56,654 bases of DNA from Deltaproteobacteria bacterium (GCA_016218865.1 JACRCU010000484.1:1-56654); one strand, 5' to 3'. Numbered from the stretch's first letter, positions 28,434 through 56,654 are shown. Translations and numbers: made by a program. The notes: generated by a model from the sequence alone, not told the origin.

Positions 28434-28547
28434 CGCCGCTGGGGCCTTGCCGCCCCGATCCGGGCGCGCCGCGCCGCCAGCCGTTGCTGCAGGTGGGCGA
28501 TTGGGCTAGATTGCAGAGCAGACGCCGTCGCGTCGTGTGGAGTGCCT

Positions 28548-28868
28548 ATGCCCGCCCAAAGTCGACTCGGCGACAAGTCGCAGGTACCGGCCGACGCCCA
28601 CGGCTGCCCGGCTTGCCCACACCCCTGCATCGGCCCGGCGGTCGCCGGCTCGCCCAACGTCAACGTGAACAGCCGCGCGGCACTGCGCGTCGGCGATCCC
28701 GGCGTGCACGCCGCTTGCTGTGGTCCCAACACGTGGACCGCGGCAGCGGGCTCGGGCACCGTCTTCATCAACAAGAAGGCGGCGCACCGCCTGGGCGACG
28801 CGGACACGCACTGCGGCGGCAGCGGCAAGATGGTCGAAGGCTCGGGCGACGTCATCACCGGCGGCTGA
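28548..28868 (+). CDS. PAAR-repeat spike-tip protein
   Basis: Three repeats SRLGD / LRVGD / HRLGD with GSPNVNVN, GSGTVFIN and GSGDVITG; His/Cys zinc-ligand candidates. Confidence 0.9.
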   Translation: MPAQSRLGDKSQVPADAHGCPACPHPCIGPAVAGSPNVNVNSRAALRVGDPGVHAACCGPNTWTAAAGSGTVFINKKAAHRLGDADTHCGGSGKMVEGSGDVITGG

Positions 28869-33699: not shown

Positions 33700-33885
33700 C
33701 GCCGCCTCGGTCGTCGGTTGGGTCGCGGGTCCGCGCCCAGTGTGGCGCAGAACAGGGCTACAAGGAAGCAGCCCGCCGCGACATTCCCGCGGAACCGGCG
33801 CGACCGCCGATACCGGTTGCGACAGGGCGGCGATGTGGGCAGGATGGAGCGACCCGGCGCCGGTGCGAGCGGGCCAAGGATGCCA

Positions 33886-41936: not shown

Positions 41937-43136
41937 ATGACGAACACCTGGAGTAACTGGATTTTCAACGGCTTGCTGATTGTCGGCTTGGCGGTGCCCG
42001 CGCTGGCGCCCGCCGACGAGGCCAAGGAGGACCCGGGCCGGCCGCGCCTGCTGGTGGTGCCGCCGGCGCCGATCGGCGACGTGTCCCTGGTGCAGATCAA
42101 GCGCATCGGCAAGGGTCTGGCCGACCAGCTCAAGACCTCGTCGGTCTTCGACGTGGTCACCGACAAGGACAAGGTTGCGCAGAAGACCGACGGCAAGAAG
42201 AACGCGCCCAAGGCCAGCGCCGCGAGCAAGCGCATCGACGCCGCCGACGCGGTGCGCCAAGAGGGCATGAACCTGCAGGCAGAGGGCAAGTACAAGGAAG
42301 CGCTGGATAAATTTGGCGACGCCGTGGGCCTGTACGAGCGGGCATATCTGGAACTGGTCGACTACGGCAACCTGGCATCGTCGTACACCGGCGCGGGCGT
42401 GTCGGCCTTCTATGCCGGCCGGCCGTCGGCCGAGGTGGCGCACTGGTTCGAGCTGGGCATCGCCATCCTGCCCACCCTGGTCATCGATCGGCGCAAGCAA
42501 GACAAGGCCCTGCTGGAGCTGTTCGACAAGACCCACGAGCAGATGGACAAGCTGCCCAAGCTGAACGTGGTCATCGACGGTCCCACCACCGACGGCGTGG
42601 AAGCGTACGTCGACGGCGTCAAGATCGGCCCGCTGCCGGCCAAGGCGACCGGGCTCATCCCCGGCGTGCACTACGCGCAGATTCACGGCGAGGGCTTTGT
42701 GCCCTGGGGCACGGTGGTGCACCTGCGCGGCAAGGACAGCAAGGTGACCGCCAAGGTCGCGGCCATCAAGGTCGAAGAGAAGAAGGTCGAGGCACCGGTC
42801 ACGGTGGACGTGCTGGCAGACTGTGCGCGCTTCGGCGGCTTCCACCTGCCGGTGTGCAAGGGCCCGGCGCCCAAGCTGGCGCGGCAGGTCGGTGCGAATT
42901 TCTTCGTGTTCTCGGCGATCAAGCTGGACCGCTTCAACCGGCCGACCGTGCACGCCTTCGTCATGGAAACCGGTGACTTGCTGACGATCTCGGTCAAGCC
43001 GCAGGAGCTGGCGGCCGACCTGGGCGACCTGAACAAGAAGATGGCCGAGCTGGAGGCCGACGTGAGCAAGGCGGTCGAGAGCTTCCCCAAGGCCCGGGCG
43101 CTGCAGAAAGTGCCGGCGGTGTGGTCCGCCAAGTGA
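41937..43136 (+). CDS. Exported TPR/PEGA-like protein
   Basis: Signal peptide, TPR-like helices, and PEGA-like VEAYVDGVKIG..LIPGVHYAQIHGEGF. Confidence 0.7.
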   Translation: MTNTWSNWIFNGLLIVGLAVPALAPADEAKEDPGRPRLLVVPPAPIGDVSLVQIKRIGKGLADQLKTSSVFDVVTDKDKVAQKTDGKKNAPKASAASKRIDAADAVRQEGMNLQAEGKYKEALDKFGDAVGLYERAYLELVDYGNLASSYTGAGVSAFYAGRPSAEVAHWFELGIAILPTLVIDRRKQDKALLELFDKTHEQMDKLPKLNVVIDGPTTDGVEAYVDGVKIGPLPAKATGLIPGVHYAQIHGEGFVPWGTVVHLRGKDSKVTAKVAAIKVEEKKVEAPVTVDVLADCARFGGFHLPVCKGPAPKLARQVGANFFVFSAIKLDRFNRPTVHAFVMETGDLLTISVKPQELAADLGDLNKKMAELEADVSKAVESFPKARALQKVPAVWSAK

Positions 43137-45091
43137 GCTTCCGTCCTGTCGTTTTTGCGCTGGCGGCGCTGCTGGTCGCGGCCTGCAGCAGCCCCGCTGC
43201 GCCCAGTACCGGGACCACCGTCGCCAAGGACGCCGGCGTCGACACCAACGAAGTGGACACGGCCACAGCCGACACCGGCAAGGTCGACCCCTGCCCAGGG
43301 GGCGAGGGCTGTCCGTGCGAGGACGACGCCGGCTGCGACGACCAAGACCCTTGCACCATCCGGGGTACCTGCGTCGACGGAGCCTGTACCGCGCCGACCG
43401 CCAAGCCCTGCGACGACGGCAACCAGTGCACCGAGGACTTCTGCAAGCCCGGCGGCGCCTGCGGCAGCAAGCCCAGCACCAGCTGGTGCAGCGACGGCAA
43501 CCCCTGCACGGTGGGCGACACGTGCAAGAGCGGAAGCTGCACCTCGGGCGCGGCCAAGGACTGTGGCGACGGCAACCCGTGCACCGACGACAGCTGTGTA
43601 GCGGGTCAGGGCTGCCAGTACGCGGCGAACAGCGGCGAGTGCCTTGCGGAAAATGCTTGCTCGGAGACCAGTTACTGCTCGCTCGGCGAATGCGAGCAGG
43701 GCAAGGCCAAGCCCTGCGACGACGACAACCCCTGCACCTGGAACAGCTGCGACCCCGAAACCGGCTGCCTGTACGTGGGCATCCCCGGCGCGGCCACCTG
43801 CACCGACGGCGAGCTGATCGCCGGTCGCTGCTGGAAGGCCATGAAACAAGACACGACCTGGGTCAAGGCCCGCGAGGCCTGCCACGCCTGGGGCGGCGAG
43901 CTCGCCAGCATGCGCAACCTGGCCGACAACAGCGCCGTGCGCAAAGTCGCCGACCAGGCTTGCGGGCAAGTGCCGGCTTTCTTTGGCCTCAACGACATCG
44001 CCATCGAGGGCAAGTACCGGTGGATCGACAGTGAAAGCAGCAATTACAGCAACTTCCACAGCGGCGAACCCAACAACGTCGGCAACGAAGATGTGTTCGA
44101 GATCTACGTCGACGGCACCTGGAACGACCTGCCCGAAGGCGCCACCCTGGCCTGCGCCGTGTGCAGCCGCTGGGCCAGCTATCCGTGCGACGACGGCGAA
44201 CCCTGTACGGCGCCTACGGTCTGCGAAAGCGGCTCGTGCCTGCCCGCCACGGTGACACCCAGCTGCGACGACGGCAATCCGTGCACGCTGGACGGCTGCG
44301 CCGTGGGCCTGGGCTGCGGCAACACCCCCAGCGACGACGGCAGCGCCTGCGGCGAATCCGGAGCCTGCCTGGGCGGTTACTGCGTGCTCCCCGCCGCCGA
44401 CACCACCCCCACCAGCTGCGCCGAGCTGCCCAAAGACGCCACGAGCGGCGTGTACTGGCTGGACCTGGACGGCCCGGGCGAGGCCACACCGACCCAAGTC
44501 TACTGCGACATGCAAAGCGACGGCGGCGGCTGGGCTTTGGTGCTGGAGGTCGACGGCGGCGCGGACGACAGCGCCTACGACAGCCCGGTCTGGGTCGGCA
44601 CCTCGCCGGACACAACCGCGCCGCCGTGGCCCGCCAAGATGACCGCGCGCCTCAAGGGTTACGCGGTCACGCCGCTCACGGACATCCGGCTCGTCTTCGT
44701 GGTCGACGGCGCGGCCCGCAGCATGGTCATCGCGGGCGGCCCCATGCCACCGGGCAGCAAGGGCCCCACTCTGCACCAACTGCTCACAGGCCCAAAAATC
44801 AGCACGGGCCTGAGTGTTTTGGACTGGGAGGCCCTGCTGCCCAAGGGCTCGCTGCAGGGGAACTGCCTCACTCAGGGCTTCCAGGTCGCGGCGAGCGGCG
44901 TCAAGCTGCGCCTGGGCATCTTTGGCAACAACGAGAAGGACTGCGACAGCGTCGACTCGTGGATCGGCATCGGCAGCTCGGGCGGGCCGTGTGGCGTGGG
45001 CGGCACGCTGGGCGCTGGCAACGTGGCCTGCTATGGCGCGGACCACGGCCCGGCCAAGGTGGCGGCGATGGTGTATGTGTATGTAAGGTAG
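43133..45091 (+). CDS. Lipoprotein: Cys-rich CDDGNPCT repeats, C-type lectin, fibrinogen-like/USOMP5-like C-terminal domain
   Basis: GTG overlaps the upstream stop; lipobox VAAC; about 8 CxDxxxCT repeats; lectin motifs GLND, EPNN and WND; VYCDMQSDGGGWALV. Confidence 0.8.
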   Translation: MSFRPVVFALAALLVAACSSPAAPSTGTTVAKDAGVDTNEVDTATADTGKVDPCPGGEGCPCEDDAGCDDQDPCTIRGTCVDGACTAPTAKPCDDGNQCTEDFCKPGGACGSKPSTSWCSDGNPCTVGDTCKSGSCTSGAAKDCGDGNPCTDDSCVAGQGCQYAANSGECLAENACSETSYCSLGECEQGKAKPCDDDNPCTWNSCDPETGCLYVGIPGAATCTDGELIAGRCWKAMKQDTTWVKAREACHAWGGELASMRNLADNSAVRKVADQACGQVPAFFGLNDIAIEGKYRWIDSESSNYSNFHSGEPNNVGNEDVFEIYVDGTWNDLPEGATLACAVCSRWASYPCDDGEPCTAPTVCESGSCLPATVTPSCDDGNPCTLDGCAVGLGCGNTPSDDGSACGESGACLGGYCVLPAADTTPTSCAELPKDATSGVYWLDLDGPGEATPTQVYCDMQSDGGGWALVLEVDGGADDSAYDSPVWVGTSPDTTAPPWPAKMTARLKGYAVTPLTDIRLVFVVDGAARSMVIAGGPMPPGSKGPTLHQLLTGPKISTGLSVLDWEALLPKGSLQGNCLTQGFQVAASGVKLRLGIFGNNEKDCDSVDSWIGIGSSGGPCGVGGTLGAGNVACYGADHGPAKVAAMVYVYVR

Positions 45092-45124
45092 TCACGTTTG
45101 CGTGGCCAGCGCTATTGTCCGTGG

Positions 45125-45156
45125 CGCCACGTGGCAGACACCGTGACATCGCGACA
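45125..45156. promoter_or_regulatory. Candidate enhancer (UAS): near-palindrome CGCCACGTGGCA plus CGTGACATCGC
   Basis: About 200 nt upstream of the sigma54 promoter at 45332; matches 54151-54194. Confidence 0.45.
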
Positions 45157-45331
45157 CCTGTCGACGCGGCTCACTTGCAGGCAGGGCAGAGCCCGCCGGG
45201 CGCCACCTGGTGGAACTGTGAGCACCTGCGCTCGAGTTGTGCTGCGAATTCGGGCAACTGGGAACTTCGATGCCTCAGCGCTGACCCGATCTACCACTTG
45301 AGAATTCAGGACCGACTCGGAATTGGGGACT

Positions 45332-45347
45332 TGGCACGGCGCTTGCT
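45332..45347 (+). promoter_or_regulatory. Sigma54 -24/-12 promoter
   Basis: TGGCACG-GCGC-TTGCT matches the consensus TGGCACG-N4-TTGCW; intergenic, about 60 nt before ATG 45411. Confidence 0.85.
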
Positions 45348-45410
45348 ACGGATACCAAGCAGCAGGCCGGCGTTCAGGAGCGCGCACCGTAGCCCGCCGA
45401 GGAGGTCCAT

Positions 45411-45740
45411 ATGCTCACGGTCCGCTCATTCGTTTCGACACACAGCCTCAACTGCGCCGCGTTGATCGTCATCACCGGGCTGCTGCTCGCGGCAACCGGT
45501 GCGGCCGACGAGAAAGCAGCCCGCAGCGGCCACCGGACATTTACCCTTAAAGACCAACCGGTTCGATCGCAAGCCGGGCCGCAGGTCAGCCCGCTGCCGG
45601 AGCAGGCGATCACCGCCAAGCCCGACAAGCCGTCGGTGACCTACATCCTCAGCCGCACGCCGCCCGTCTGGGAATGCAGTCCGGCGACCCCCAACTTTCT
45701 GCCGCGCATCCTGGTCAATGCTCGCTCGGGTCGCCTGTAG
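45411..45740 (+). CDS. Small exported protein, possibly CglF/GltF-like
   Basis: GGAGGAGG RBS, hydrophobic signal, and C-terminal EQAITAKPDKPSVTYILSR..NFLPRI. Confidence 0.55.
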   Translation: MLTVRSFVSTHSLNCAALIVITGLLLAATGAADEKAARSGHRTFTLKDQPVRSQAGPQVSPLPEQAITAKPDKPSVTYILSRTPPVWECSPATPNFLPRILVNARSGRL

Positions 45741-45764
45741 CCGCAGGCCCGCGCCAATGTGCAG

Positions 45765-47141
45765 CTACTCCTGCGCCCGCCACGCCGCAAGCTCCTCCTG
45801 CGAAACACCGAAGGACTCAATCCAGCGGTAGATTTGCTTGCGATCGCGGCCAATGGCGCGCGCTGCCGCCCCCAAATTGCCGCGATGGGCCGCAAGAAGC
45901 TGCCGGAACTCGGCGGCTGAGTCCGGTGGCCGGGTCACGCCGTCGCCCGCCGCACTGGACTGCGGGCCGGGCGTGGTGCGTGCATCGACCGACTCTGTCA
46001 GGTAGAGCGGCAGAGCCGCAATTGTCGCGGGGACCTGGGTTGCGGACAGCCCGTACATCACACGGACGACTTCGCGCATGTTGTCAGGCCAGTCGTGACG
46101 GGCAAGCAGTTCGACCACATCGGGCGACCAGCGAGATGCCCAACTGGGCGCCGCAGGCGCTGGAAGTGCCGCCTGGCAAAGTGCCATCAGGTCCGCGCGT
46201 CGTTGGCGGAGCGGGGGGACGACCACTTCGTGGGCGCGAAGGCGCGCCAAGAGATCCTGGCGAAACTGGCCCAGGCCAACCCGCGCCCCCAGGTCGGCGT
46301 TGGTGGTCGCGACGAATTTGACATCGACGCCGTGGTCCATGTGCCCGCCCACCGGGCGGATCACCGTCGATTCCAGCACCCGTAGTAGCTTGACCTGCAA
46401 TGCCAGCGGCAGATCGCCGATCTCGTCCAGCACCAGCGTGCCCCCGTCGGCTTCACGGATGCGCCCAGGCCGGGCTTCCACCGCGCCCGAGAAAGCGCCC
46501 CGCACGTGCCCGAACAGCTCGGACTCGAACAGCGCTTCGGGAATGGCCGTTACGTTGACATAGACCAGCTTGCCATGACGCCCGCTCAGCGCGTGGACTT
46601 CGGCCGCGGCAGCTTCCTTGCCGACGCCCGTTTCGCCAGTGATCAAGACGGGCCGCGAGTCCTTGGCAGCCGCCGCCAGGCCCGCACGCATGGACCGAGC
46701 TGCCGCCGTCGTGCCGGGCGCGGCGCGGGTGGCCTTGTCGAACGCGGGGTGAACTCCTGGGTCCAGCTCGGCCACGCAGACGCACCCGCCAAAACGGAGT
46801 ACGGCGCCGGATTCGACGCTTGTCTTGCCCGTGACGGGCGCGCCGTCGACCCAAGTGCCGTTGCGGCTGCCCAGGTCGGTCACGTCGAGCACATCGCCCG
46901 CGGGCAGCAAGCCGACGTGGCTGCGCGACAGCGTCGCATCGGCGACGGCCAGCAGGTGCCGCGGGGTAGCATCGGGAGCCGGCTCGCGGCCAACAACGGT
47001 GGTCATGGGCGGCAAGGTCGTGGCCACGCCGACCAGACGCGGATCCAATGCGGTCAGGAAGTGCAGGCGCCAGCGCGGGGTGTGGAGTGGTGGTCCGGCC
47101 GAGGCGAAGCGCGGCGCGGTCTGGGTGGTGGTGGCGCACAT
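45765..47141 (-). CDS. FHA-domain sigma54-dependent transcriptional activator (FHA-AAA+-HTH)
   Basis: FHA VGR..LSRSH..DLGSRNGTWVDG; Walker A GETGVGKE; ELFGHVRGAFSGA; LDEIGD; FRQDLLARL; WPDNMRE; Fis-type HTH. Confidence 0.92.
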   Translation of the reverse strand: MCATTTQTAPRFASAGPPLHTPRWRLHFLTALDPRLVGVATTLPPMTTVVGREPAPDATPRHLLAVADATLSRSHVGLLPAGDVLDVTDLGSRNGTWVDGAPVTGKTSVESGAVLRFGGCVCVAELDPGVHPAFDKATRAAPGTTAAARSMRAGLAAAAKDSRPVLITGETGVGKEAAAAEVHALSGRHGKLVYVNVTAIPEALFESELFGHVRGAFSGAVEARPGRIREADGGTLVLDEIGDLPLALQVKLLRVLESTVIRPVGGHMDHGVDVKFVATTNADLGARVGLGQFRQDLLARLRAHEVVVPPLRQRRADLMALCQAALPAPAAPSWASRWSPDVVELLARHDWPDNMREVVRVMYGLSATQVPATIAALPLYLTESVDARTTPGPQSSAAGDGVTRPPDSAAEFRQLLAAHRGNLGAAARAIGRDRKQIYRWIESFGVSQEELAAWRAQE

Positions 47142-47263
47142 GCTTTCCTCACCGGCGCGTTGGACGCGGGCGAGGGTAGCACGGCGGCGGCGGCGGGGAA
47201 ATCGACGCTGTTTTGGTACGGAGTGTCAGGGACTTGGCTGATCATGGCCGCCGGCGGCGGTGA

Positions 47264-50200
47264 TCAGTTCGGGATGTGGACGCAGCCCTTGGCCGGGTCG
47301 CAGAGATCGAGGGTGGTCGGGTCGCCGTCGTTGCAGCTGTCGGGGGTCAGGCCGGCGCAGGCTGTGCAGGTGGCGTTGCCCCAGGGGTCGAGGCGGGCCA
47401 ACATGCCCTTGCCTTTGGCCTCTTCAATGCCGGCCAAGACGATGGCGCCATTCGGGAGTTCTGCCGCGCCATTGACGCGCGAGTTGCCAATCGCAGGGTA
47501 GCCGGCGAGCGAACGCGACCAGAGCGGAAGTCCCTCAATTGTCGTCTTGATTACCAGCCCGTGAGCGTTTCCACCAACAACGTCATAGCCTGCGAGCAAC
47601 ACGCTGCCGTCACTAAGTAGGGTGCCACGGTTGTAGCTCAGCAGGGTCGAGGTGCCAATCTGCTTCTCCCATTGTACGACGCCGCCGCTGTTGAGGCGAA
47701 TGAGTATGAATTTCGACTCCTTGTTCCCAAAATTCGCGGTTCGGGTTCCCGCCACAAGCCAGCCGCTGCCGTCCTTCCCCGGCCACACCGATGCCGCCGC
47801 GCTGGCTCCTAGGCCTGGATATGTTTGCGAGAAGATGACGGTCCCGTCCGGCTTGGTGGCCACAACCAATGCAACATCGATTCCGTTGTTGGCGGCCTGG
47901 CTGCGACGAAAACCCGCCATTGCCCGGTTGCCGGATCCATCAAGACCGATACCCTGGAACTGATCGCTCCAGTCGGCCTCCGCGTAAACGAAGTAGCTCG
48001 GTACCCCGGCGGGACTGACTCCAACGACCCAGCCAGAGTACAATCCTGAGGTGATATTGTTTGGCGTGAATCCGGCGAGCCAGGCCGTGCCGTCCGGGGC
48101 AATGGCGACATCGTTGGCACCGTCTTGGCCTGCCTTTCCTAAGCTGAGGTCGAAGGAGGTTGGCTGTCCGACCACAAGTGGCATTCGGACAACTCTGGCG
48201 TTGCTGCCGTTTGCACCATCCTGGCGCGAGCCCACAGCAATGATGCTGTCCGAGTTTGTTTCGATGGCGGTAAGGTAGTCGGCTTCCGGCAAGGCAATCG
48301 ATCGCGGATAACCGCTCATCTCCTTCCCGTCGGCACCGAACGCATGAATTTCGCTGTCGTAAGAGTCAGCTGGTTTGCCCGTGGCCACAACCCCTGCTGC
48401 GACGACAACACCGCTTGGAGACAGCGCAACGTCGGCCAATGTCTGGACGGTCCCTGGAACCAAGGCCACGCCGAAGGCTTCCGAGGCTCCGGCGCAGGTT
48501 CCGCCTGCGCAGATGTCGCCAGCCGTGCACGCATCGCCATCGTCGCACGGAGCCTTGTCCACCAGCGCAACGTGAGAGCACCCAGCCTTTCCGTCACAGC
48601 CGTCGGCCGTGCACGGCTCGCCGTCGTCGCACGCTGCGGGCAACTTTTCCGCACAGCTTCCTGCATCAGCGCACGCCGTGTGGCCAAACGCGTCGGCACG
48701 GATGGCCCAACCACTGCTGGCCGCGCCTTTGCTAGCAGTGCTACCTACCGCAAGCAGGCCGATTCCTGCGGGTGTGGGCGCCACGTCCCAGAGGACATTG
48801 GGGCCGGACGCCGATCCAAGTACGGACGCCCAAAGTGCATTGCCCTGATGGTCGAGGACGGCCGCCACGGAACTGCCCTGGTCGGGAGCCTGTTTGTCAG
48901 CCCCAACAAGGACCAGCTTGTCGGTGTCGAAGGCGGCAATTCGGCCGTAGCTTGCGGTGAGCGGCAATTTGGGTTCACTGGCCCACATGAGATTGCCGTA
49001 CAGGTCGCAGCGGGCGAGCCAGACAGTGCCACTCGGGAGGGATCCGGAAGCGCCGCCCGCCATGAAGTATCCACCAGGCACCGCTACGACGCTCATTGCG
49101 ACAACCCCTGATCCGAAATACCGGCGTTTCCAAAGGGTTTCGCCGGTTTCCGTCACCATTGCCGCCCACGGATCGGGGTCCGCAGTCGACGATCCATCGC
49201 GGCCCACCAGCAAGTACTTGGTCGTATCGCCCTGCACTTCCAGCATTGCTTCAGCTTCAGTACCTTGTCCGCTTCCAAGGTAGATGTTTGGCTTTACGCC
49301 GCCGAGGTTGTCAACAATCCCAAACCAGGCGTGGTCAACGGACTTCACTTCGGCTGGCTGCGTGGTGCCGCAATAGGCGACGCCGCCATCACTGCGCGCA
49401 ACGACCGCCGCAATCGACTCGTCGTTGGCACCTGGATACGAGACCTGGACCGGCCCCAGCGATGCCACCGCCTCCCCCCAGGTAATCTTCGCCACTAGAC
49501 CCTTGTCTGTACCCTGCGCGGTCCTGCTCCCGCCGACAACAACAGTTTCGCCGCCGACGTCGAGTGCAGATGCGCCTTCGTAGTCGATACCGGCGAGATT
49601 GGGCTGCCACTTGACCGCTCCCGCATCGTCCATCCCGACGACCCACAGATCGGCACCGCCAGTACCTGCCCTGGCACCAACAGCCACGGCGCGACGACTG
49701 TCGAGCCACTTCGTGCGCTTGAGGAACCCACCGCCTAATGCGGGAAACGTGGTCTCGAAGAGGCTGGGCGCACCGGCCTGGCACTTGCCCGACAGGCAGT
49801 TCCCATCCGTCGTGCACGGCTTGCCATCGTCGCAAGCACTGCCATCCGCAAGGTTGCTGTGCTTGCAGCCGGTCTTGTCGTCGCAGGTGTCCGCAGTACA
49901 TGGCAGGCCGTCGTCGCAATCTGCCAATGACTTCCCGTCGCAAACCCCAAGCTTGCCACAGTCAGTGTTGCCAAGATCGTTGACGCGAAGGGCAAGACCG
50001 ATTCCTTTGTTGCCGTCGCTGCCGGCCACCACGACCCCACCGCTTGGCAAGGCGACAACTACATAGCCTAGCTGAGCGCCGGCGCCGCCGAACTCACTGT
50101 GCCACAGCTCTGCGCCAAGCCCGTTGATCTTCGCAAACCACAGCTGTGCCTCGCCGCTTGCGGTGCCCGCAAAAGTGTACCCTGCCAGCATGAACGAGTC

Positions 50201-52738
50201 ATCGGACAGTGTCGCGAATGCACCCGGCAAGACCGACTGAGTCACTGGCAGCTTCTTGTCCCATACCACGCCACCCGTAGAATCGAAGCGAACCAGCCAC
50301 GGCTGATAGTCCGTCTGAAGGCCGGAGCTGTGCCGCAGACCCAGAGCCAGCAGGCCGCCGTCGCTGGCCGCGATCGCCGCAACGAAGCCCTGGTCCTTGC
50401 CGTCTTCGTAGAAGTACTTCCGTGGCCCCTGCGCCTTGAGATTGGTATCGATGCGCTGCAGATAGCCGCCACCGTGATTTCCTGCACCAGAATGGCCCAA
50501 CAAGCAGAACTGGCTGCCGCAGGGTGCGATGGCGTTGACGTCCGTGGGATAGGCGTTGGGAAAGTACCGCGCGCTTCCGAGTTGGATGATGCCGCTGGCG
50601 CTGACGTTGATGTCCGCGATGGTAGCGTCAGGGTGGGCACCACCGCTGGGAAGGGTGCTGGCGCCGCCGACGAGCCACGTACCGTTGGCGAACGCGTGAA
50701 CGGTATTGAACACCATCGTCGTGCCAGGCGTGCCGAGGAACTTCTGGTCGATGAGTTCGCCTTCGGCGTCGATCGTGACCGCCCAGCCGCGGACGTCGGT
50801 CGGGTAGCCCTTGACAGAGCTTTGGCCGACCGCCAATGCTCGGCCATCGCCAATATCGACGACGCCGCTGAACAGCGAGTATGCCGTGCCGGCACCGTAG
50901 GTCCTCAGCCAGACGATCTTGCCGTCGTCTCGGACCCTGGCCGCCCAGCCGGCGTCCGTCGCCGCGCCCGTGCCCTTGCTGGCCTGGCCGATCACCAGGA
51001 ATCCGTCCGCATACGCGGCGGTTGCGCCGGCTGCCACCGCGGTCTTGAAGCCCGGTATGGCGAATTCCACAGGCCCGAGCGCGGGTCCGCCCGCAACGCA
51101 CTTTCCGCCCTTGCAGCTATCCCCGAGCGTGCAAGCACTGCCATCCTGGCAAGCATCGCCATCCGCGACGGCGACGACCACGCAACCCTTGGTCACGTCA
51201 CAGCTATCCTTGGTGCAATCGTTTCCATCGTCACAGTTCTTCAGGCCGCCCGCCAAGCACTTGCCCTCGACGCAGCTGTCGCTGACGGTGCACGGATTGC
51301 CGTCGTCGCAGGCACCACTGGATTTGGTGACGTGCGTGCAGCCCTTGCTGCTGTCGCAGGCGTCGTCGGTGCAGGCGTTGCCGTCGTTGCAGTCGAACTT
51401 GACTCCGGGCGTGCAGGTGCCGCCGGTGCAGGTGTCGGCCAGCGTACAGGCGTCGCCGTCGCTGCAGGCCGCGCCGGTCTGGGTGACGCTGACGCAGCCC
51501 TGGGCGGGGTCGCACTGGTCGGTCGTACAGCCCTTGCCGTCGTCGCAGTTGACCAGCTTGCCCCCGGCACACAGACCTGCGGCGCAGACATCGCCGGTTG
51601 TGCAAGCGCTGCCGTCGCTGCACGGCGCCTGATTGTTGACGAAGGTGCAGCCCTTGGCAGGGTCGCAGCTGTCGTCTGTGCAGGGGTTGCCGTCGCCGCA
51701 GGCCGTCGCGGCTGAACTGGTGCACGCGCCCGCGAGGTCGCAGTGGTCGCCCGCGGTGCAAGCGTCGCCATCACTGCAGGAGGCCCCGACCATCGGGTCG
51801 TTGGCGCAGCCCTTCAGCGGATCGCAATGGTCGAACGTGCAAACCTTGCCGTCGTCGCAGGCTTTGGGCTCGCTGCCCGCGCAGGCCTTGGCGCCGTCGC
51901 AGGCCGATTGCAGCGTGCAGGCATTGCCGTCGTCGCAAGCCGCGCCCTTGGCGGTGGCCTTGAACTCGCAGCCGGTCGCGGGGTTGCAGGTGTCGTCGGT
52001 GCAGGCATTGCCGTCGCTGCAGGCCACCGCCGTGCCGCCACTGCACGCGCCGGTTTGGCAGGACTCGCCAGCGGTGCAGGCGTTCCCATCGCTGCAGGCC
52101 CCCGTCGTGGCCGCGTGCGCGCACCCCTTGGCTGCGTCGCAGCTGTCGACGGTACAGGGGTTGTTGTCACTGCAGTCTACGATTCCGGTGTGGCCACACG
52201 TTCCTGACTTGCAGGCATCGCCAGTGGTACAGGCATCGCCGTCATCGCAGGCGGCGGAGTTGGCGGGATGGGCACAACCGGCCGACTTGTCGCAGGCCGG
52301 ATCATCGGTGCAGGGATTGTTATCCGCGCACACGACGGCGTTGCCGCCCTTGCAGGTGCCACCCTGGCACGTGTCGCCGCTGGTGCACGCGTCACCGTCG
52401 TCGCACGCGCCGGATGTTGGAGTGTTGATGCAGCCCGTGCCCGGGGAGCAGGTGTCCTTGGTGCAGATATTGTCGTCGTCGCAGTCACTGCAGGCGTTCG
52501 TGTCCGCGGTTTCGGCATCCGTGTCTTGGACTTGGCCATTGCCAGCGCCGGTTGCACAAATGGGCACGCCGCCGGCGTCGACCAAGTGGTAGCCGGCAGG
52601 GCAGCCAATCTTGGGCTCGGCACTGCAACCTGCGCCAAGAAGGCATAGCGTGGCAACCACCGCTTTGAGTAGAGGTTGGAGGCGGAAGAGCGGGCGATAC
52701 CAGCAGGCACCCGATGTTTTCGTCGCGGAGTCAGCCAT
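47264..52738 (-). CDS. Giant (1824 aa) lipoprotein: Cys-rich CxDGxxCTxDxC repeats plus three beta-propeller-like domains
   Basis: Lipobox GAGC; 18 N-terminal repeats, then 2+2+1 more after three ~300-aa domains rich in D-x-x-G-x-x-x-W and GG-x-x-x-x-G blades. Confidence 0.8.
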   Translation of the reverse strand: MADSATKTSGACWYRPLFRLQPLLKAVVATLCLLGAGCSAEPKIGCPAGYHLVDAGGVPICATGAGNGQVQDTDAETADTNACSDCDDDNICTKDTCSPGTGCINTPTSGACDDGDACTSGDTCQGGTCKGGNAVVCADNNPCTDDPACDKSAGCAHPANSAACDDGDACTTGDACKSGTCGHTGIVDCSDNNPCTVDSCDAAKGCAHAATTGACSDGNACTAGESCQTGACSGGTAVACSDGNACTDDTCNPATGCEFKATAKGAACDDGNACTLQSACDGAKACAGSEPKACDDGKVCTFDHCDPLKGCANDPMVGASCSDGDACTAGDHCDLAGACTSSAATACGDGNPCTDDSCDPAKGCTFVNNQAPCSDGSACTTGDVCAAGLCAGGKLVNCDDGKGCTTDQCDPAQGCVSVTQTGAACSDGDACTLADTCTGGTCTPGVKFDCNDGNACTDDACDSSKGCTHVTKSSGACDDGNPCTVSDSCVEGKCLAGGLKNCDDGNDCTKDSCDVTKGCVVVAVADGDACQDGSACTLGDSCKGGKCVAGGPALGPVEFAIPGFKTAVAAGATAAYADGFLVIGQASKGTGAATDAGWAARVRDDGKIVWLRTYGAGTAYSLFSGVVDIGDGRALAVGQSSVKGYPTDVRGWAVTIDAEGELIDQKFLGTPGTTMVFNTVHAFANGTWLVGGASTLPSGGAHPDATIADINVSASGIIQLGSARYFPNAYPTDVNAIAPCGSQFCLLGHSGAGNHGGGYLQRIDTNLKAQGPRKYFYEDGKDQGFVAAIAASDGGLLALGLRHSSGLQTDYQPWLVRFDSTGGVVWDKKLPVTQSVLPGAFATLSDDSFMLAGYTFAGTASGEAQLWFAKINGLGAELWHSEFGGAGAQLGYVVVALPSGGVVVAGSDGNKGIGLALRVNDLGNTDCGKLGVCDGKSLADCDDGLPCTADTCDDKTGCKHSNLADGSACDDGKPCTTDGNCLSGKCQAGAPSLFETTFPALGGGFLKRTKWLDSRRAVAVGARAGTGGADLWVVGMDDAGAVKWQPNLAGIDYEGASALDVGGETVVVGGSRTAQGTDKGLVAKITWGEAVASLGPVQVSYPGANDESIAAVVARSDGGVAYCGTTQPAEVKSVDHAWFGIVDNLGGVKPNIYLGSGQGTEAEAMLEVQGDTTKYLLVGRDGSSTADPDPWAAMVTETGETLWKRRYFGSGVVAMSVVAVPGGYFMAGGASGSLPSGTVWLARCDLYGNLMWASEPKLPLTASYGRIAAFDTDKLVLVGADKQAPDQGSSVAAVLDHQGNALWASVLGSASGPNVLWDVAPTPAGIGLLAVGSTASKGAASSGWAIRADAFGHTACADAGSCAEKLPAACDDGEPCTADGCDGKAGCSHVALVDKAPCDDGDACTAGDICAGGTCAGASEAFGVALVPGTVQTLADVALSPSGVVVAAGVVATGKPADSYDSEIHAFGADGKEMSGYPRSIALPEADYLTAIETNSDSIIAVGSRQDGANGSNARVVRMPLVVGQPTSFDLSLGKAGQDGANDVAIAPDGTAWLAGFTPNNITSGLYSGWVVGVSPAGVPSYFVYAEADWSDQFQGIGLDGSGNRAMAGFRRSQAANNGIDVALVVATKPDGTVIFSQTYPGLGASAAASVWPGKDGSGWLVAGTRTANFGNKESKFILIRLNSGGVVQWEKQIGTSTLLSYNRGTLLSDGSVLLAGYDVVGGNAHGLVIKTTIEGLPLWSRSLAGYPAIGNSRVNGAAELPNGAIVLAGIEEAKGKGMLARLDPWGNATCTACAGLTPDSCNDGDPTTLDLCDPAKGCVHIPN

Positions 52739-52780
52739 GAGAACCCCCTTGAACCTTGCGGATGTGGCCGCACCAAGGAA

Positions 52781-53872
52781 CTAGAAACGCCATGCCAACG
52801 CGGCACCAGACCTGTTCGGCATCACTTGGAATACAGACGTATTTTCCGAATGTTCAGGCCAAAGAGCCAGTACCGCGCTGGCCACCGCCAGTGCACCGGC
52901 GCCTGCCGCGGCGCCCCACATAGCCCCAATGTCGGCCTCGCGCTGACGCAGCTCAGGATACGAAATGCGTGTAAGATCATAGGTATCGCTGGAAGGAAAC
53001 TTCGCGTCGTTGAGGCTGTTGTATTGCAGCAGTGCAGCTGTCGCCACACCGATTGCCACGGCTCCGGCCGCAACCGCAGCCCATCGAACCATGGAACGGC
53101 TGGCAGCCGGAGCCGCCGCACATTCGGCTTGGCTCGCGATCGCGGTGCAGCTGGTCGCCGCAGCTTCGCCGGCCGCCGGCAGCATCGCGACGCGAGCCGC
53201 ACAGGCCTGCTTGGCTTGTTGCAGTGCATTGTTGTGCGCTGCAAGGCGATCCGCCGCACAAGCGGTTTCCGCCAAACACGACGACGACGACGCCACCGCA
53301 TGGTCGGCAAGGGCAAGTTGCTGGTCCACCGGAAGGTCGGCGGCCTTGCCGCATTCCAGCCACTTGGCTGCGGCCGAGCAGGACTGCTTGCGCTCATCGA
53401 AGGCAGCGGCCACGGCGTCGCAGGGAAGCTCACAAATCTCTTTGGTTGCTGCCCTGTTGCAGGCCTCGCGCACCGCTGGCGTCTGCAGGATGTCCGCCAC
53501 GATCGCGAACGAGCTGCGCCGGGCGCAGGCGGCAACGGCCATGGAGGCGTGCTGTCCGCACAAGGCCGGCTGATGGCGGTTGGCCTGGGCGGCGGCGTAC
53601 CAGAGCTCGATGGCCTTGGCCAGACGCAGCATACGGCCGCGCTCTCCCAGTGCCACGGCGCGAACCGACAATTCGTCGTGAAGCGCGGCCGCTTCGCCAT
53701 ACCTGCGGGCGGCCTCGAACTCGTTGGCCTGTTTCACCACAGGCGCGAGACACGCCACCTCGCCCGCAGCAATGCACTGCTCGGCTTCGCTGTCGAGCGC
53801 CGCGGCCTGGCCGGCATCGAAGACGATGGCAAGGAGGGCAAGAGCTAGCGCATAGACGAGCCGTGTGGGCAT
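52781..53872 (-). CDS. Hypothetical exported Cys/Ala-rich helical protein with C-terminal hydrophobic segments
   Basis: GAGG RBS, signal peptide, two TM-like segments and terminal ..GAALAWRF, as in myxobacterial TPR/PEGA-type partners; first gene after a sigma54 promoter. Confidence 0.65.
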   Translation of the reverse strand: MPTRLVYALALALLAIVFDAGQAAALDSEAEQCIAAGEVACLAPVVKQANEFEAARRYGEAAALHDELSVRAVALGERGRMLRLAKAIELWYAAAQANRHQPALCGQHASMAVAACARRSSFAIVADILQTPAVREACNRAATKEICELPCDAVAAAFDERKQSCSAAAKWLECGKAADLPVDQQLALADHAVASSSSCLAETACAADRLAAHNNALQQAKQACAARVAMLPAAGEAAATSCTAIASQAECAAAPAASRSMVRWAAVAAGAVAIGVATAALLQYNSLNDAKFPSSDTYDLTRISYPELRQREADIGAMWGAAAGAGALAVASAVLALWPEHSENTSVFQVMPNRSGAALAWRF

Positions 53873-53926
53873 CGTGACCTCAGGCGGCGAACAGGTGCCG
53901 GCAACGTTCCGACGAGTGTATACCTG

Positions 53927-53942
53927 AGCAAGATGCGTGCCA
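53927..53942 (-). promoter_or_regulatory. Sigma54 -24/-12 promoter
   Basis: Minus strand reads TGGCACG-CATC-TTGCT, matching the consensus, about 55 nt before ATG 53872. Confidence 0.85.
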
Positions 53943-54150
53943 ACGTGGGGGGATTAACCTTCACCTCATTCTAATTACAGACTATCTCGTTCGCTGGCCG
54001 GCGCGCGCAGCCAGACCTGGCCCCGCGCCGCCCCCAGCGACACACCTCGCCCAAGGGCTATCGGCGGGACGGCGGCCACGCGCGAACAAAAGACGATAGG
54101 ATTTCGCTATGTTTCGGGTCGAGACAGCATTCCGACGGGCAGGACTGCCG

Positions 54151-54194
54151 CGTGACCTCGCCGTGACCATGCCACGCCCATGCCACGTGACAGA
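54151..54194. promoter_or_regulatory. Candidate enhancer (UAS): 11-nt periodic CGTGACC/CATGCCACG repeats ending in TGCCACGTGACA
   Basis: About 210-250 nt upstream of the minus-strand sigma54 promoter; 12/13 match to 45126-45138. Confidence 0.45.
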
Positions 54195-54258
54195 TTGGGT
54201 GGCCAAGAGATCCCCGCCGTTCCCTAGAAGCGCCCCACCGCATCCCGGGGCAAACCCG

Positions 54259-56433
54259 TCAATGGCAAAGCGGATCACTAGGGAAACAGTCGCACAGGTC
54301 TTCCAAGCTCGCCTTGTTCCTATCGACGATGCAGTGGCAGCGGTAGTCCTTGTGCGATGGGCAACGCGTTTTCGCGCACTTGCACCATGGGCCGTGGGGC
54401 GGTCCCGCAGCTGGCGCGGCACAGTCGAAGTCCCGGCATGGACAGTGCGCGGAGTCGGCGTCGGGGCACTTGTCGCACCACGCCTTCACGTTCGGGCAGA
54501 ACTGAGCGCACAAGACGGCCGGATCGGAGGATTTGCACGGGTCTGGGGGTGGACACCGCGCCGGATCGCGGTCGACGCACGCTTTGCACCATTCCGCATT
54601 GGGCGCATCCGAGCAGTTGGAGCAGTAAAGCTCCTTGGACTTCGAGGCGCAGGTGCTGCACCAGTGCGAGCGGTCGTCGGCGCAAAATTGCTTGCAAAAC
54701 AGCGCGGGATCCTGGGCCTTGCACGGATCGTCCGACGGACACTTGGACGAGTCCGTGTGCGGACACGACTTGCACCAGCGGGTCTGGTCCTCGGGGCAAA
54801 ATTGCCTGCAGAAAACCGCCGCATCCTGCGACTTGCATGGTTCGCAGCGGTCCTGCCAGTGCTTGGCAAAGGGGCTGGATTTGCAGCGGGTGCACCAATC
54901 CTGGCTGTCGGTCAGGCAACTTCCGCAGAAGATGGCCGGGTCCTTGCTCTGGCATGGAGGTGGCGGTGGTGGCGGCGGGGGGTATCCACCACCGGGCGAC
55001 GGCTTCTCATCCTCCCGGCCGCCGCAGTCATCCGCATCGCAAGCGTCGGTGTCGCCACCACAATCACCGTCGTCCACGCAATCGCCAGAGTCCGCGTCGT
55101 CTCCCGTGTCGGTGTATGATTCGGTTTCCGTGTCCGCGTCCGGAGGACTCACGCTGTCGGGCTCGTGGCTTCCTGTCCCGTACCACACGATCGCCACGAC
55201 GACTGCAACGACCAGCGCCAACAGCGCGGCGACTACCAGCGCCGGCACGCCGGACTTGCCGGAAGCTGACGCGATACCTTGGGTTGTCTCCGGAGCCTCG
55301 CCGGGGGGAGCAACTACTGGGGCAGTCTGGCTTGGAACAGGTGGAGTTGGCGTGACCGGCTTGCGAAGGGGCGCCGGCATGGGTGCCGTTGGCGGCTCTG
55401 GAGGCAGCGGCTGCGACGCCAGAACGGGCGCGATCGGTGCCGGGGTGACCGGCAGGGCGCGCTGCGGAGCGGGCTCGGCAAGCCACTGCTCCAGGGCGGC
55501 GCGCATCGCAGCAGCGGACTCGAAACGGTCGTCCGGCGACTTGGCCAGAGCCCGCGCCACCAAGGCCTCCAGCCGCGGGTCGATGCCTGGGACGAATTCA
55601 GACAGTGCCAAAGGCTGCGCATGGACATGGGCAAAGCACAGCGCGATTTGGTCTGTGGCCATGTACGGCTGCTGGCCGGTCAGGCAGCGAAACAGTATAA
55701 TTCCAAGCGAATAGAGATCCGAGCGACCATCCATCGCCGTGCCCATCACCTGCTCTGGGCTCATGTAGTGCGGCGTTCCAAAGATCGTACCGGTTTGCGT
55801 GAGCGCCGCCTGGCCGACATTGCGCAACGCCTTGGCGATGCCCCAGTCGATGACTTTGACGAACGGCTCGTCCTCGCCGCCGATGTCGCACAAGAAGATG
55901 TTGTCCGGCTTCAAGTCGCGGTGGACGAAATTCTTGCTGTGCGCTTCTTGCAGGGACTTGAGAACCTGGACAGCCACCTTGACCGCGTGGCGCGGCTCCA
56001 AGCGTTGGTGGCCCGCCAAATCCCGTTCCAGCACATGGCCGTTCAGGAATTCCATGGCCATGTAGAGGTCGCCTTCGGGCGTCACGCCGGAGTCGAATAC
56101 GCGAACCGTGTTGGGGTGGCTCAGTTTCGCCGTGATGACAGCTTCGGCAAGGAAGCGCGCCTCGGTTTCCTTGTTCTGCTGCAAGCCAGGGCGCAGCAGC
56201 TTGATGGCATATTCTTGTTTATTGTTAATATGATAGGCAACATAGACGACACCAAATCCGCCGCGACTGAGCTCGCGGGTGACCCGGTAGCGACCAGCGA
56301 TGAGGCCGCCAACGCGCGGGAGGCTCGGACTGGTGGCTTCGGCGGTGGGAGTGCCATCGTTTGGACAATTCGCCTCGTCCGTGAGCGTCTCGCAAAGCGG
56401 ACAGACACGCTGAGGCAGGTGCGGCTGGTCCAC
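54259..56433 (-). CDS. Membrane Hanks-type Ser/Thr protein kinase with N-terminal Zn-ribbon-like motif and Cys-rich extracytoplasmic repeats
   Basis: CPLCE..CPND; SRGGFGVVY, AIKLL, HRDLKPDN, IDWGIAK, GTPHYMSPEQ and DLYSLG; Pro linker; TM ALVVAALLALVVAVVVAIVWY; Cys repeats. Confidence 0.93.
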   Translation of the reverse strand: MDQPHLPQRVCPLCETLTDEANCPNDGTPTAEATSPSLPRVGGLIAGRYRVTRELSRGGFGVVYVAYHINNKQEYAIKLLRPGLQQNKETEARFLAEAVITAKLSHPNTVRVFDSGVTPEGDLYMAMEFLNGHVLERDLAGHQRLEPRHAVKVAVQVLKSLQEAHSKNFVHRDLKPDNIFLCDIGGEDEPFVKVIDWGIAKALRNVGQAALTQTGTIFGTPHYMSPEQVMGTAMDGRSDLYSLGIILFRCLTGQQPYMATDQIALCFAHVHAQPLALSEFVPGIDPRLEALVARALAKSPDDRFESAAAMRAALEQWLAEPAPQRALPVTPAPIAPVLASQPLPPEPPTAPMPAPLRKPVTPTPPVPSQTAPVVAPPGEAPETTQGIASASGKSGVPALVVAALLALVVAVVVAIVWYGTGSHEPDSVSPPDADTETESYTDTGDDADSGDCVDDGDCGGDTDACDADDCGGREDEKPSPGGGYPPPPPPPPPCQSKDPAIFCGSCLTDSQDWCTRCKSSPFAKHWQDRCEPCKSQDAAVFCRQFCPEDQTRWCKSCPHTDSSKCPSDDPCKAQDPALFCKQFCADDRSHWCSTCASKSKELYCSNCSDAPNAEWCKACVDRDPARCPPPDPCKSSDPAVLCAQFCPNVKAWCDKCPDADSAHCPCRDFDCAAPAAGPPHGPWCKCAKTRCPSHKDYRCHCIVDRNKASLEDLCDCFPSDPLCH

Positions 56434-56654
56434 GATGGAAGTTCCTCGCTTGGCGATCTGGCCAGAGCTTAGCCGTGGGTCGCAGGGAGGGCAAGCGGCG
56501 TTATTTTTGGATCTTTGGGAGCACCGCAGTTCGCCCGTCGCGCTGCCGTCTCACAGTGCCGCCCAGAACGAGCGATCCGACCGCATGGGTTTTTTGCGGG
56601 CGGCCCTGTCCTCTGGGTGGGGCGCAAGCGAGCGCCTACAGCGACTCGCCGCGC

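Follow-up and report, generated by a model that had tools for sequence, protein, structure and literature searches.

A candidate module from Ser/Thr kinase to sigma-54 activator, with two promoters and two half-site clusters, in an uncultured groundwater myxobacterium

Genes and gene products of the locus

The locus belongs to an uncultured groundwater myxobacterium (Myxococcota; assembly 5.35 Mb, 82% complete) and lies in a stretch of 56,654 nt that was analyzed over its full length, hereafter the window. A kinase gene, an activator gene, both target promoters and both enhancers are all present within 11 kb. The five genes, two consensus sigma-54 promoters and shared palindrome described in the initial annotation were all found in place; its gene layout needed one correction, as the kinase gene reads in the same direction as the putative operon of promoter P2 and is its immediate upstream neighbor. 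The sequencing runs identified for the organism are groundwater DNA runs. Independent Logan contigs span UAS-A/P1/P0005/bEBP and P2/UAS-B/kinase with zero differences, and an Rfam search of positions 44800-56654 gave zero family matches.

P0001 (54259..56433, minus strand; 724 aa) is a Hanks-type Ser/Thr receptor kinase (PF00069) on the basis of its Pfam Pkinase score (159.3 bits, aa 49-310) and catalytic residues. An N-terminal CPxC...CPxDG zinc-ribbon motif is followed by the kinase domain, a Pro-rich linker, the TM segment, an acidic/poly-Pro linker and the ectodomain. There is one hydrophobic/TM segment (aa 390-423), and 42 of the 48 cysteines fall beyond it, in a WCxxC/WCxC Cys-rich ectodomain (aa 428-724), which bears out the annotation as a membrane Ser/Thr kinase with an extracytoplasmic Cys-rich part. 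Residues K78, E97, H171-R172-D173, K175, N178, D196, G198, T212 and P226-E227 do not vary among the 14 cassette kinases compared. The DFG motif of the other 13 reads DWG in P0001 only (Phe to Trp). The ectodomain is an orphan, matching only itself in a phmmer search of 1.84 billion representatives, and its AF2 model (pLDDT 40) has no nameable fold; the same ordered WCxC ectodomain motifs do occur in the kinases of the three modules closest to this one.

P0004 (45765..47141, minus strand; 458 aa) is an FHA-sigma54 enhancer-binding protein (bEBP), with Pfam scores of 36.7 bits for FHA (PF00498, cut-off 20.7 bits) and 177.3 bits for Sigma54_activat (PF00158, cut-off 20.2 bits). The FHA domain (aa 48-118), which has a conserved extension at its N terminus, precedes the AAA+ domain (aa 146-305) and a putative C-terminal HTH (aa 415-444); HTH_29/HTH_28 matches to the latter score below their Pfam cut-offs, and its segment R434-Q436-Y438-R439-W440 is invariant in 20/20 paralogs. 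Equally invariant are the Walker A motif (GETGVGKE), the DE of Walker B (LVLDEIG) and FHA residues G51-R52, S72-R73, S92 and N94-G95, with H75 conserved in at least 90% of paralogs. We take the Gly-Arg, Ser-x-x-His and Asn-Gly residues to be phosphothreonine-binding positions, and these and the AAA+ motifs are intact as judged from sequence. The sigma-54 contact loop reads GAFSGA, a Ser variant that we assume to be functional; all but one of the 20 paralogs retain GAF[TS]GA, the other, L038, having a deletion. The relatives of P0004 form a family of paralogs that has expanded within a single family of Myxococcota, and none above ~57% identity was found in 107 genomes of the class. A protein homology search with aa 1-140 returned 6 proteins with no informative names, and a contig profile search with the bEBP alignment returned, among the matches listed, generic bEBPs from many phyla. 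None of 36 PDB matches spans both FHA and AAA+ domains: AAA+ matches reach E-values down to 5e-49, and the sole match to the FHA domain is ArnA (5a8i, E 9e-6).

Three further genes encode candidate targets. P0002 (52781..53872, minus strand; 363 aa) is an exported protein with a signal peptide, an Ala/Cys-rich helical part and a C-terminal TM hairpin (aa 261-284 and 317-339). It may be a divergent relative of a TPR/TM-hairpin family whose members lie between kinase and bEBP genes in related cassettes. A default hmmsearch (E≤0.01) with an HMM of nine such cassette proteins missed P0002; with filters off it scored 21.4 bits (E 2.4e-4), a match limited to the TM-hairpin half and high in composition bias. 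BLASTP matched P0002 to L038:4376-5284 (E 0.003).

P0003 (47264..52738, minus strand) is a giant probable lipoprotein of 1824 aa with 11 stretches matching Pfam Dicty_CTDC (172.8 bits). A putative signal peptide, in which a hydrophobic segment (aa 20-40) ends in LLGAGC and is a candidate lipoprotein signal, is followed by ~10 Cys-rich CTDC repeats and three ~370-aa modules, each then followed by CTDC repeats. The three modules are 26-27% identical to one another and are probably beta-propellers: among Foldseek matches to P0003, those recognised are beta-propellers (best CylK, 7fh6, E 1e-10, with a weak AF2 model of pLDDT 52 and pTM 0.56 as query). The leads for the module family are PQQ_2 and SBBP, each in under half of members, and delta_60_rpt scores 25.6 bits against P0003, below its cut-off of 76.5. 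A protein homology search with the module returned 6 proteins with no informative names. In the spacer between the giant and bEBP genes (47142..47263, minus strand), a predicted hairpin immediately follows the stop codon of the giant gene, and the ribosome site of the bEBP gene is paired in a second predicted stem; the RNA fold of the spacer (-53.6 kcal/mol, z -3.72) was equalled in stability by 0 of 200 shuffles.

P0005 (45411..45740, plus strand) encodes an exported protein of 109 aa with no known family and converges on the bEBP gene, the two stop codons being 24 nt apart. It is weakly similar (E 0.001) to a sigma-54-driven 113-aa exported protein encoded before the bEBP gene in L020.

Sigma-54 promoters and upstream half-site clusters

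Promoters were defined by exact match to TGGCAC-N5-TTGCW (-24 element TGGCAC, -12 element TTGCW, 5-nt spacing). P1, TGGCACGGCGCTTGCT (45332..45347, plus strand), lies 64 nt ahead of the P0005 start codon, and P2, TGGCACGCATCTTGCT (53927..53942, minus strand), lies 54 nt ahead of that of P0002. Both are intergenic, and the downstream start codons have GGAGG/GAGG ribosome sites. They are the only two matches in the 56.6-kb window (0.11 expected; 0 of 100 shuffles reach two), while the genome as a whole has 29 consensus sites compared with 0 for a reversed control pattern. The rpoN gene is represented by a DNA-binding-domain fragment (107.6 bits), which is partial (model positions 2-85 of 160) and located at a contig end. 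The computations thus support the presence of rpoN and suggest that sigma-54 promoters are in use in this genome; the two annotated promoters hold up as exact matches in the right orientation and at the right spacing before genes. An AT-rich tract directly upstream of the P2 -24 element (53943..53995; GC 0.45 vs 0.68 for the window) could be a DNA-bending or IHF-type region.

Clusters of G[TC]CACG half-sites occur upstream of both promoters. UAS-A (45091..45147, ~185-240 bp upstream of P1) has six half-sites and contains GTCACG-N4-CGTGGC and the palindrome GCCACGTGGC (45126-45135). UAS-B (54151..54191, ~210-265 bp ahead of P2, with the stop codon of the kinase gene a further ~70 nt ahead) has five half-sites spaced by 11, 9, 11 and 4 nt and contains the palindrome GTCACGTGGC (54191-54182, minus strand). 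The palindrome to which the initial annotation drew attention is thus present at both promoters, but taken alone it is common (51 copies of the 10-mer in the genome) and its shared 9-mer is not significant (1.18 expected; 33 of 100 shuffles reach two). What sets it apart is its position in genome-unique clusters: with a half-site motif defined post hoc, after inspection of both regions, UAS-A (6) and UAS-B (5) are the only places in the 5.35-Mb assembly with at least 5 half-sites in 70 bp, and the next-best cluster in the window has 3.

When hexamers were ranked separately in the two regions, CGTGGC was 4th of 2080 in region A (5 observed vs 0.56 expected) and CGTGAC 2nd of 2080 in region B (3 observed vs 0.15 expected); these single-region enrichments (p ~3e-4 and 5e-4) are lost after correction for 2080 hexamers. 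An exact shared k-mer test of the enhancer regions was not significant, and a motif-free hexamer-sharing test ranked the P1-P2 pair at 194 among 406 promoter pairs. The half-site shows no general enrichment ahead of 13 paralog promoters (17 sites vs ~12.4 expected), although L023 has 6. No clusters of at least 4 half-sites were found in the other related loci examined. On balance, the computations support a local enhancer/sigma-54 circuit in which the two promoters appear to share a genome-unique type of half-site cluster.

Kinase-activator linkage in related loci

The initial annotation proposed a synteny search for kinase, FHA-bEBP and Cys-repeat giant. Linkage of the first two recurs elsewhere: in 23 of 40 related loci (13/20 in a first set, 10/20 in a further set), a Hanks kinase is encoded no more than ~2 kb from the activator gene, where about 2.3 of 40 would be expected by chance given 57 kinase loci in 5.35 Mb. 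The giant fared differently. CTDC genes are found near the bEBP gene in 17/40 loci, which is about chance given 124 CTDC loci per 5.35 Mb; because adjacency at such a density is near chance, the giant does not count as a conserved third component, and a conserved triad of kinase, bEBP and Cys-repeat giant was rejected.

In 8 of 20 paralog loci, sigma-54 promoters (≤1 mismatch) stand ahead of genes for bEBPs or exported proteins. Consensus promoters stand directly before the bEBP gene in L029, L030 and L033, and in L020 before a small gene that precedes the bEBP gene. Autoregulation of the activator, suggested for this locus as positive feedback, is plausible in light of these arrangements. Kinase and activator distances are correlated (Mantel r 0.62), with r falling to 0.29 when one ortholog pair is left out (424 of 5000 permutations as high); co-diversification is weak once that pair is removed.

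Proposed circuit, alternatives and relation to known systems

From the gene content, motifs, promoters, enhancer-cluster uniqueness and recurring kinase-activator pairing, we infer the signal, operon structure and biochemical steps set out here. The kinase would have a single membrane crossing, its catalytic domain facing the cytoplasm and the orphan Cys-rich domain the exterior. A signal at the ectodomain would lead to autophosphorylation on threonine (Thr212 of the activation loop is invariant); the activator's FHA domain would then dock on phosphothreonine, or the activator itself would be phosphorylated, and either event could free its AAA+ domain for oligomerisation. The activator would bind the G[TC]CACG half-sites of both UAS-A and UAS-B and, via DNA looping, remodel sigma-54 RNA polymerase at P1 and P2. 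P2 would drive P0002 and the giant CTDC/propeller lipoprotein, with read-through probably reaching the activator gene and therefore giving positive feedback. P1 would drive the small secreted protein P0005, and its transcript, if unterminated, would reach the activator gene from its 3' end, in antisense orientation.

With moderate confidence, we read the locus as a self-contained module from Ser/Thr kinase to sigma-54 activator; the kinase/FHA-activator/sigma-54 module is probably real, and autoregulation probably part of it. The annotated one-locus kinase/enhancer system inducing a surface protein is thus retained for its local circuit and kinase-bEBP linkage, and not for a conserved giant. 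The assembly totals (57 kinase and 26 bEBP loci per 5.35 Mb) leave 56 other kinase loci and 25 other bEBP loci as possible cross-talk partners, which counts against this reading, as do the DWG motif of P0001, the post hoc choice of half-site motif and the negative motif-free test. The local enhancer/promoter/activator circuit could be real and its neighboring kinase not the input, the FHA domain reading another kinase's phosphothreonine or acting phospho-independently. Besides the number of kinases, the 7.1 kb between the kinase and activator genes, which are not adjacent, the weak co-diversification, and the 15/40 related loci with no kinase within 5 kb of the activator (against 25/40 with one), including the well-covered ortholog loci L029 and L030, speak for such an arrangement. 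We nevertheless consider it unlikely, since adjacency in 23/40 loci is about ten times chance, many of the loci without a kinase lie on contigs under 7 kb, and the three modules closest to this one have kinases with the same ordered ectodomain motifs. It is less likely still that another enhancer-binding protein acts on P1 and P2 and that P0004 has its targets elsewhere. Binding of P0004 to the UAS is a prediction, the assembly has many bEBP loci and, as it is 82% complete, other targets or activators may be unseen; on the other hand, the half-site clusters are confined to the P0004 locus, bEBP genes usually adjoin their targets, and sigma-54 promoters flank paralogous bEBP genes.

Two further readings seem to us highly improbable. 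PADLOC models for PD-T4-6, given with no cut-offs, match the kinase with up to 324.7 bits over aa 43-497, as would fit a defence kinase that acts on its own against phage and has no connection with the sigma-54 genes; we judged these matches generic, as they cover the Hanks kinase domain and many PD-T4-6 models match equally, and P0001 has the TM segment and large ectodomain typical of receptor kinases and recurs beside FHA-bEBPs. A chance juxtaposition of unrelated genes with two fortuitous promoter-like sequences would be in keeping with the negative motif-free similarity test and with CTDC genes being everywhere in the genome, but would have to account for two exact consensus promoters correctly oriented and spaced before genes, for genome-unique enhancer clusters and for a recurrent kinase-activator pairing.

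Myxobacteria have greatly enlarged sets of both eukaryote-like kinases and sigma-54 activators. The closest precedent for the locus is the FHA-domain sigma-54 enhancer-binding proteins of Myxococcus xanthus, reportedly described by Jelsbak, Givskov and Kaiser in 2005 (PNAS 102:3010). P0004 is like the proteins reported there in that FHA replaces the receiver domain ahead of the AAA+ sigma-54 domain and a putative HTH, in the implied input from a Ser/Thr rather than a histidine kinase, and in its myxobacterial host with many bEBPs and many kinases. It differs in belonging to a separate paralog family and in having a candidate kinase, both promoters and both enhancers within 11 kb, all known from sequence alone. 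With NtrC/PspF-type bEBPs (among them FleQ, NtrC1, ZraR and PspF, whose AAA+ domains have solved structures) it shares the AAA+ sigma-54 domain, upstream enhancer sites and -24/-12 promoter, but its N-terminal sensor is an FHA domain. A full-text literature search, with most subscription journals and Jelsbak 2005 outside its scope, returned no paper on a cognate kinase/FHA-activator pair with its enhancer and promoters. The locus had been put forward as an undescribed system; it is not of an undescribed kind, because its wiring is one already suggested for the Myxococcus FHA-EBPs. The circuit logic is not new; here both target sites are visible. The orphan WCxC sensor, the CTDC/propeller giant as output and two promoters with one enhancer type appear to be distinctive.

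The TIGR04201 Cys-rich repeats of TraA of M. xanthus are said to resemble Pfam PF00526 (Pathak et al. 2012, PMC3325183). P0003 is similar to TraA in being exported, in its predicted long Cys-rich repeat stalk with candidate globular binding modules and in coming from Myxococcota. Unlike TraA-type Cys-repeat surface proteins, P0003 lacks both a PA14 domain and a MYXO-CTERM tail (its C-terminus reads ...GCVHIPN), and its heads are probable propellers. The giant's expression appears tied to a sigma-54 promoter, which is true for only 3 of the 29 consensus promoters in the genome. The locus thereby links a switch to one member of a very large, unstudied Cys-repeat/propeller surface-protein family and may offer a handle on when such proteins are produced. 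It also provides a minimal test case for reconstitution, made up of a single kinase, a single activator, a pair of 16-nt promoters and two short, genome-unique half-site arrays.

A broader and more speculative reading, to which we attach low probability, is that the locus is one of a set of diversifying kinase-based surface-signalling cassettes, each with its own fast-evolving ectodomain and private enhancer, and each switching on one of >100 CTDC stalk-and-propeller proteins. If this were true, each cassette would combine a receptor kinase bearing a zinc ribbon with a co-sensor of the TPR/TM-hairpin type and an FHA-sigma54 activator, and positive autoregulation together with the convergent antisense transcript could produce a pulse or a bistable switch. 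Such cassettes would let these bacteria vary their cell surface through kinases as needed, for instance when they touch prey, kin or a surface.

Locus layout and sigma-54 promoters

The minus strand encodes, from 56433 down to 45765, a Hanks kinase (724 aa), a 363-aa exported protein (P0002), a giant protein of 1824 aa (P0003; 47264-52738) and an FHA-sigma54 activator of 458 aa (P0004; 45765-47141). Kinase and P0002 are separated by a 386-nt intergenic region, and P0003 and P0004 by a 122-nt spacer (47142-47263). P0005, a 109-aa exported protein on the plus strand, converges on the P0004 gene, the two stop codons lying 24 nt apart (45741-45764); no terminator-like site was found in this gap, and transcription of P0005 may continue in antisense orientation through the end of the activator gene. 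In published gene calls, the giant and the activator are shorter (1509 aa and 416 aa, respectively) and start later than the ORFs used here. The longer ORFs are favored because Cys-rich CTDC repeats (Pfam Dicty_CTDC) with Pfam matches are present upstream of the giant’s published start, and an N-terminal extension of the activator (W24, L26, H27, D33) is kept in paralogs.

The assembly comprises 5.35 Mb in 576 contigs and is 82% complete; GC content of the window is ~68%. Both regulatory regions are covered by independent Logan contigs that bear out the assembly, with identical pieces also present in a second groundwater study. The DNA runs that best match the window are groundwater metagenomes, and Atlas look-alikes of P0002 are most frequent in Myxococcota. 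GC3 of the kinase, P0002 and giant genes is 0.71-0.75, compared to 0.84-0.93 in housekeeping genes of the window, and cassette genes at paralog loci are likewise below their flanking genes; fast evolution, low expression or within-family transfer could account for this. Elsewhere, the window encodes a PAAR-motif protein (28542-28868) as well as a CsgG-domain protein of 1166 aa (32206-35706).

The sigma-54 consensus TGGCAC-N5-TTGCW has exactly two matches in the 56.6-kb window, P1 at 45332-45347 (+) and P2 at 53927-53942 (-), bearing out the two promoters proposed in the initial annotation. The chance expectation is 0.11, two matches were reached in none of 100 shuffles, and a one-mismatch search of the window gave no additional site. 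Both promoters are intergenic and correctly oriented, 64 nt (P1, before P0005) and 54 nt (P2, before P0002) ahead of start codons with good ribosome sites. The stretch immediately preceding P2 is AT-rich (GC 0.45) and may be a site of DNA bending. The organism uses sigma-54, as indicated by 29 genomic sites for TGGCACG-N4-TTGCW versus none for the reversed control and by an rpoN fragment at a contig end.

Kinase, activator and Cys-repeat proteins

The kinase retains all catalytic residues and the invariant activation-loop threonine, while DWG replaces DFG in this protein alone among 14 cassette kinases (those encoded with an FHA activator). An N-terminal CPxC...CPxDG ribbon occurs in 12 of these 14, compared to 9 of 38 kinase-motif ORFs of this genome. 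A single hydrophobic segment (aa 390-423) precedes 42 of the 48 cysteines; since catalysis requires ATP, the Cys-rich region is inferred to lie outside the cell, which agrees with the membrane kinase and extracytoplasmic Cys region originally described. A search of 1.84 billion representative proteins with this ectodomain returned no match but itself, and structure prediction (pLDDT 40) yielded no usable fold. The ectodomain does align with those of kinases from the two closest modules (L020, L021), through an ordered WCxxC/WCxC series with 22 invariant columns.

Both domains of P0004, FHA and Sigma54_activat, score above their Pfam cut-offs. Across 20 aligned members of the family, little or no variation is seen in the AAA+ motifs or in the residues with which the FHA domain binds phosphate. 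The loop that contacts sigma-54 reads GAF[TS]GA in 19 of them, and the C-terminal helix R-x-Q-x-Y-R-W is invariant; none of 36 PDB matches spans the FHA and AAA+ parts together. The spacer before the activator gene (47142-47263, minus strand) has a stable predicted RNA fold (z -3.72), with a hairpin right behind the giant’s stop codon and a stem pairing with the activator ribosome site. This modeled fold might act in attenuation or in the control of translation.

The giant carries a signal peptide with LLGAGC at its end, some ten CTDC repeats and three ~370-aa modules with 26-27% mutual identity. One module gave a weak model (pLDDT 52), for which the best Foldseek match is CylK (7fh6, E 1e-10), and the matches recognized are beta-propellers. 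No family was assigned to P0005; its sole hint of kinship is a match (E 0.001) to a small exported protein that is encoded ahead of the L020 activator and driven by sigma-54.

Judged from sequence, Cys-repeat surface proteins have undergone a very large expansion in this genome: tblastn with the giant’s CTDC region found 124 CTDC-bearing loci in 5.35 Mb, one per 43 kb, many of them at contig ends (examples in the window are 43283-44386 and 51089-52486). At this density, a stretch of ~15 kb holds a CTDC locus about one third of the time by chance.

Conservation of the kinase-activator pair

No ortholog of the activator was found in 107 genomes of the class, where the best matches have 50-57% identity. 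Its N-terminal module marks a paralog family, present in 21 of 36 genomes of the window’s own family and carried there in one to five copies per positive genome, compared to 11 of 70 genomes in other families. We compared 40 loci carrying this module, in two sets of 20. All 19 activator homologs scanned in the first set have FHA and Sigma54_activat domains. A Pkinase gene resides within ~2 kb of the activator at 13 of the first 20 loci, while in the second set a kinase lies within 2 kb at 10 and within 5 kb at 12. The chance expectation, derived from the 57 kinase loci in the 5.35 Mb of the window’s genome alone, is ~2.3 of 40. Many loci lacking a kinase are contigs of <7 kb, but the well-covered ortholog loci L029 and L030 are truly without one. 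L029, L030 and L033 (G006:C375, G003:C76 and G004:C857, respectively; L033 on a short contig) represent one orthologous cassette, with near-identical sigma-54 promoters ahead of the FHA activator gene and an adjacent CTDC gene.

Of the three-gene synteny anticipated from the window, the kinase-activator linkage is thus conserved well beyond chance, but the giant is not a conserved member. CTDC genes are present in 11 of 20 stretches in the first set and 6 of 20 in the second, near the one third expected by chance, and of the genome's 29 consensus sigma-54 promoters, just 3 lie ahead of a CTDC gene. The giant is therefore better viewed as cargo of the cassette than as a defining member. One locus, L034, keeps the order of the window, with a promoter, a 350-aa exported/TM protein, a CTDC giant, a kinase and an activator on one strand. 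Sigma-54 promoters (≤1 mismatch) precede the activator or an exported-protein gene at 8 of the first 20 loci and, using a slightly different pattern, at 2 of the second 20, a pattern that argues for autoregulation being usual in this family.

A possible third core component is a 240-350-aa protein encoded at nine related loci, between kinase and activator in L031, L038, L121, L126, L127, L128, L130 and L134, and at the operon head in L034. This protein combines a signal peptide with a TPR-like helical region, a proline-rich linker and a membrane hairpin of two helices whose loop is conserved. P0002 shares this organization, but is an uncertain member of the family: a profile of the nine proteins missed it with default filters and, with filters off, matched the hairpin half only (21.4 bits, E 2.4e-4). 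The genome encodes at least 12 proteins of this family (e.g., window 27102-28433 (+), and contigs C118, C363, C462, C131, C55 and C357), with no Pfam family above cut-off in those scanned. Three adjoin zinc-ribbon kinases and none adjoins another enhancer-binding protein. The family looks like a general kinase accessory.

Half-site arrays and a candidate circuit

The palindrome said to be shared by the two promoters is indeed present upstream of both (GCCACGTGGC at 45126; GTCACGTGGC at 54191-54182, minus strand), but carries little weight alone, as 1.18 occurrences of the shared 9-mer are expected in the window and the 10-mer has 51 genomic copies. The stronger feature is the pair of G[TC]CACG half-site arrays that enclose the palindromes: 45091-45147 contains six sites and 54151-54191 contains five, often spaced by 9-12 nt and ~185-265 bp upstream of the promoters. 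The densest other 70-bp stretch in the window has three half-sites; across the assembly, five or more per 70 bp occur nowhere else, and four occur at six other places. Directly upstream of the first array, the gene at 43121-45091 (+) encodes CTDC repeats, a C-type lectin domain and a bacterial fibrinogen-like GGGWT domain.

Because the motif was picked after inspection of both regions, less biased tests were tried. When each region is compared by itself with genome frequencies, CGTGGC comes 4th for enrichment among 2080 hexamers in the P1 region (5 vs. 0.56) and CGTGAC 2nd in the P2 region (3 vs. 0.15), although neither survives multiple-test correction alone. By a motif-free hexamer-sharing score, probably dominated by GC-rich simple sequence, the P1-P2 pair ranks 194 of 406 sigma-54 promoter pairs. 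As a rough estimate, two five-site clusters in two pre-specified 300-bp regions would arise by chance with a probability below ~1e-4, given no other such cluster in 5.35 Mb and allowing for ~19,000 one-position-degenerate hexamers.

Similar sites occur elsewhere. At G000:C435:11204-11525 (L139:805-1126), four GCCACG/GTCACG half-sites with 12-nt spacing are followed, ~250 bp downstream, by a sigma-54 promoter with one mismatch (TGGCATGGGCTTTGCT) and then by a CTDC-repeat ORF of 717 aa. This promoter may be a third target, an ambiguous reading because the sites form a 12-nt tandem repeat within the 5’ part of the coding sequence of a divergent gene. In L023 (G022:C88), 1164-1464 holds six G[TC]CACG half-sites versus ~1 expected, in the 320 nt upstream of a sigma-54 promoter adjoining an activator of 51% identity; recognition of this half-site may be common to some paralogs.

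We consider it reasonably probable that these elements form one circuit. The kinase would sense an outside signal through its Cys-rich domain and autophosphorylate; the FHA activator would read the phospho-mark and assemble on the two half-site arrays, causing P1 and P2 to fire. The place of the activator gene in the operon would provide positive feedback, and any read-through from P1 would be antisense to this gene. The proposed wiring matches the logic reportedly described by Jelsbak et al. in 2005, and the main use of the locus is as a compact test case for this kinase/FHA-activator/sigma-54 logic.
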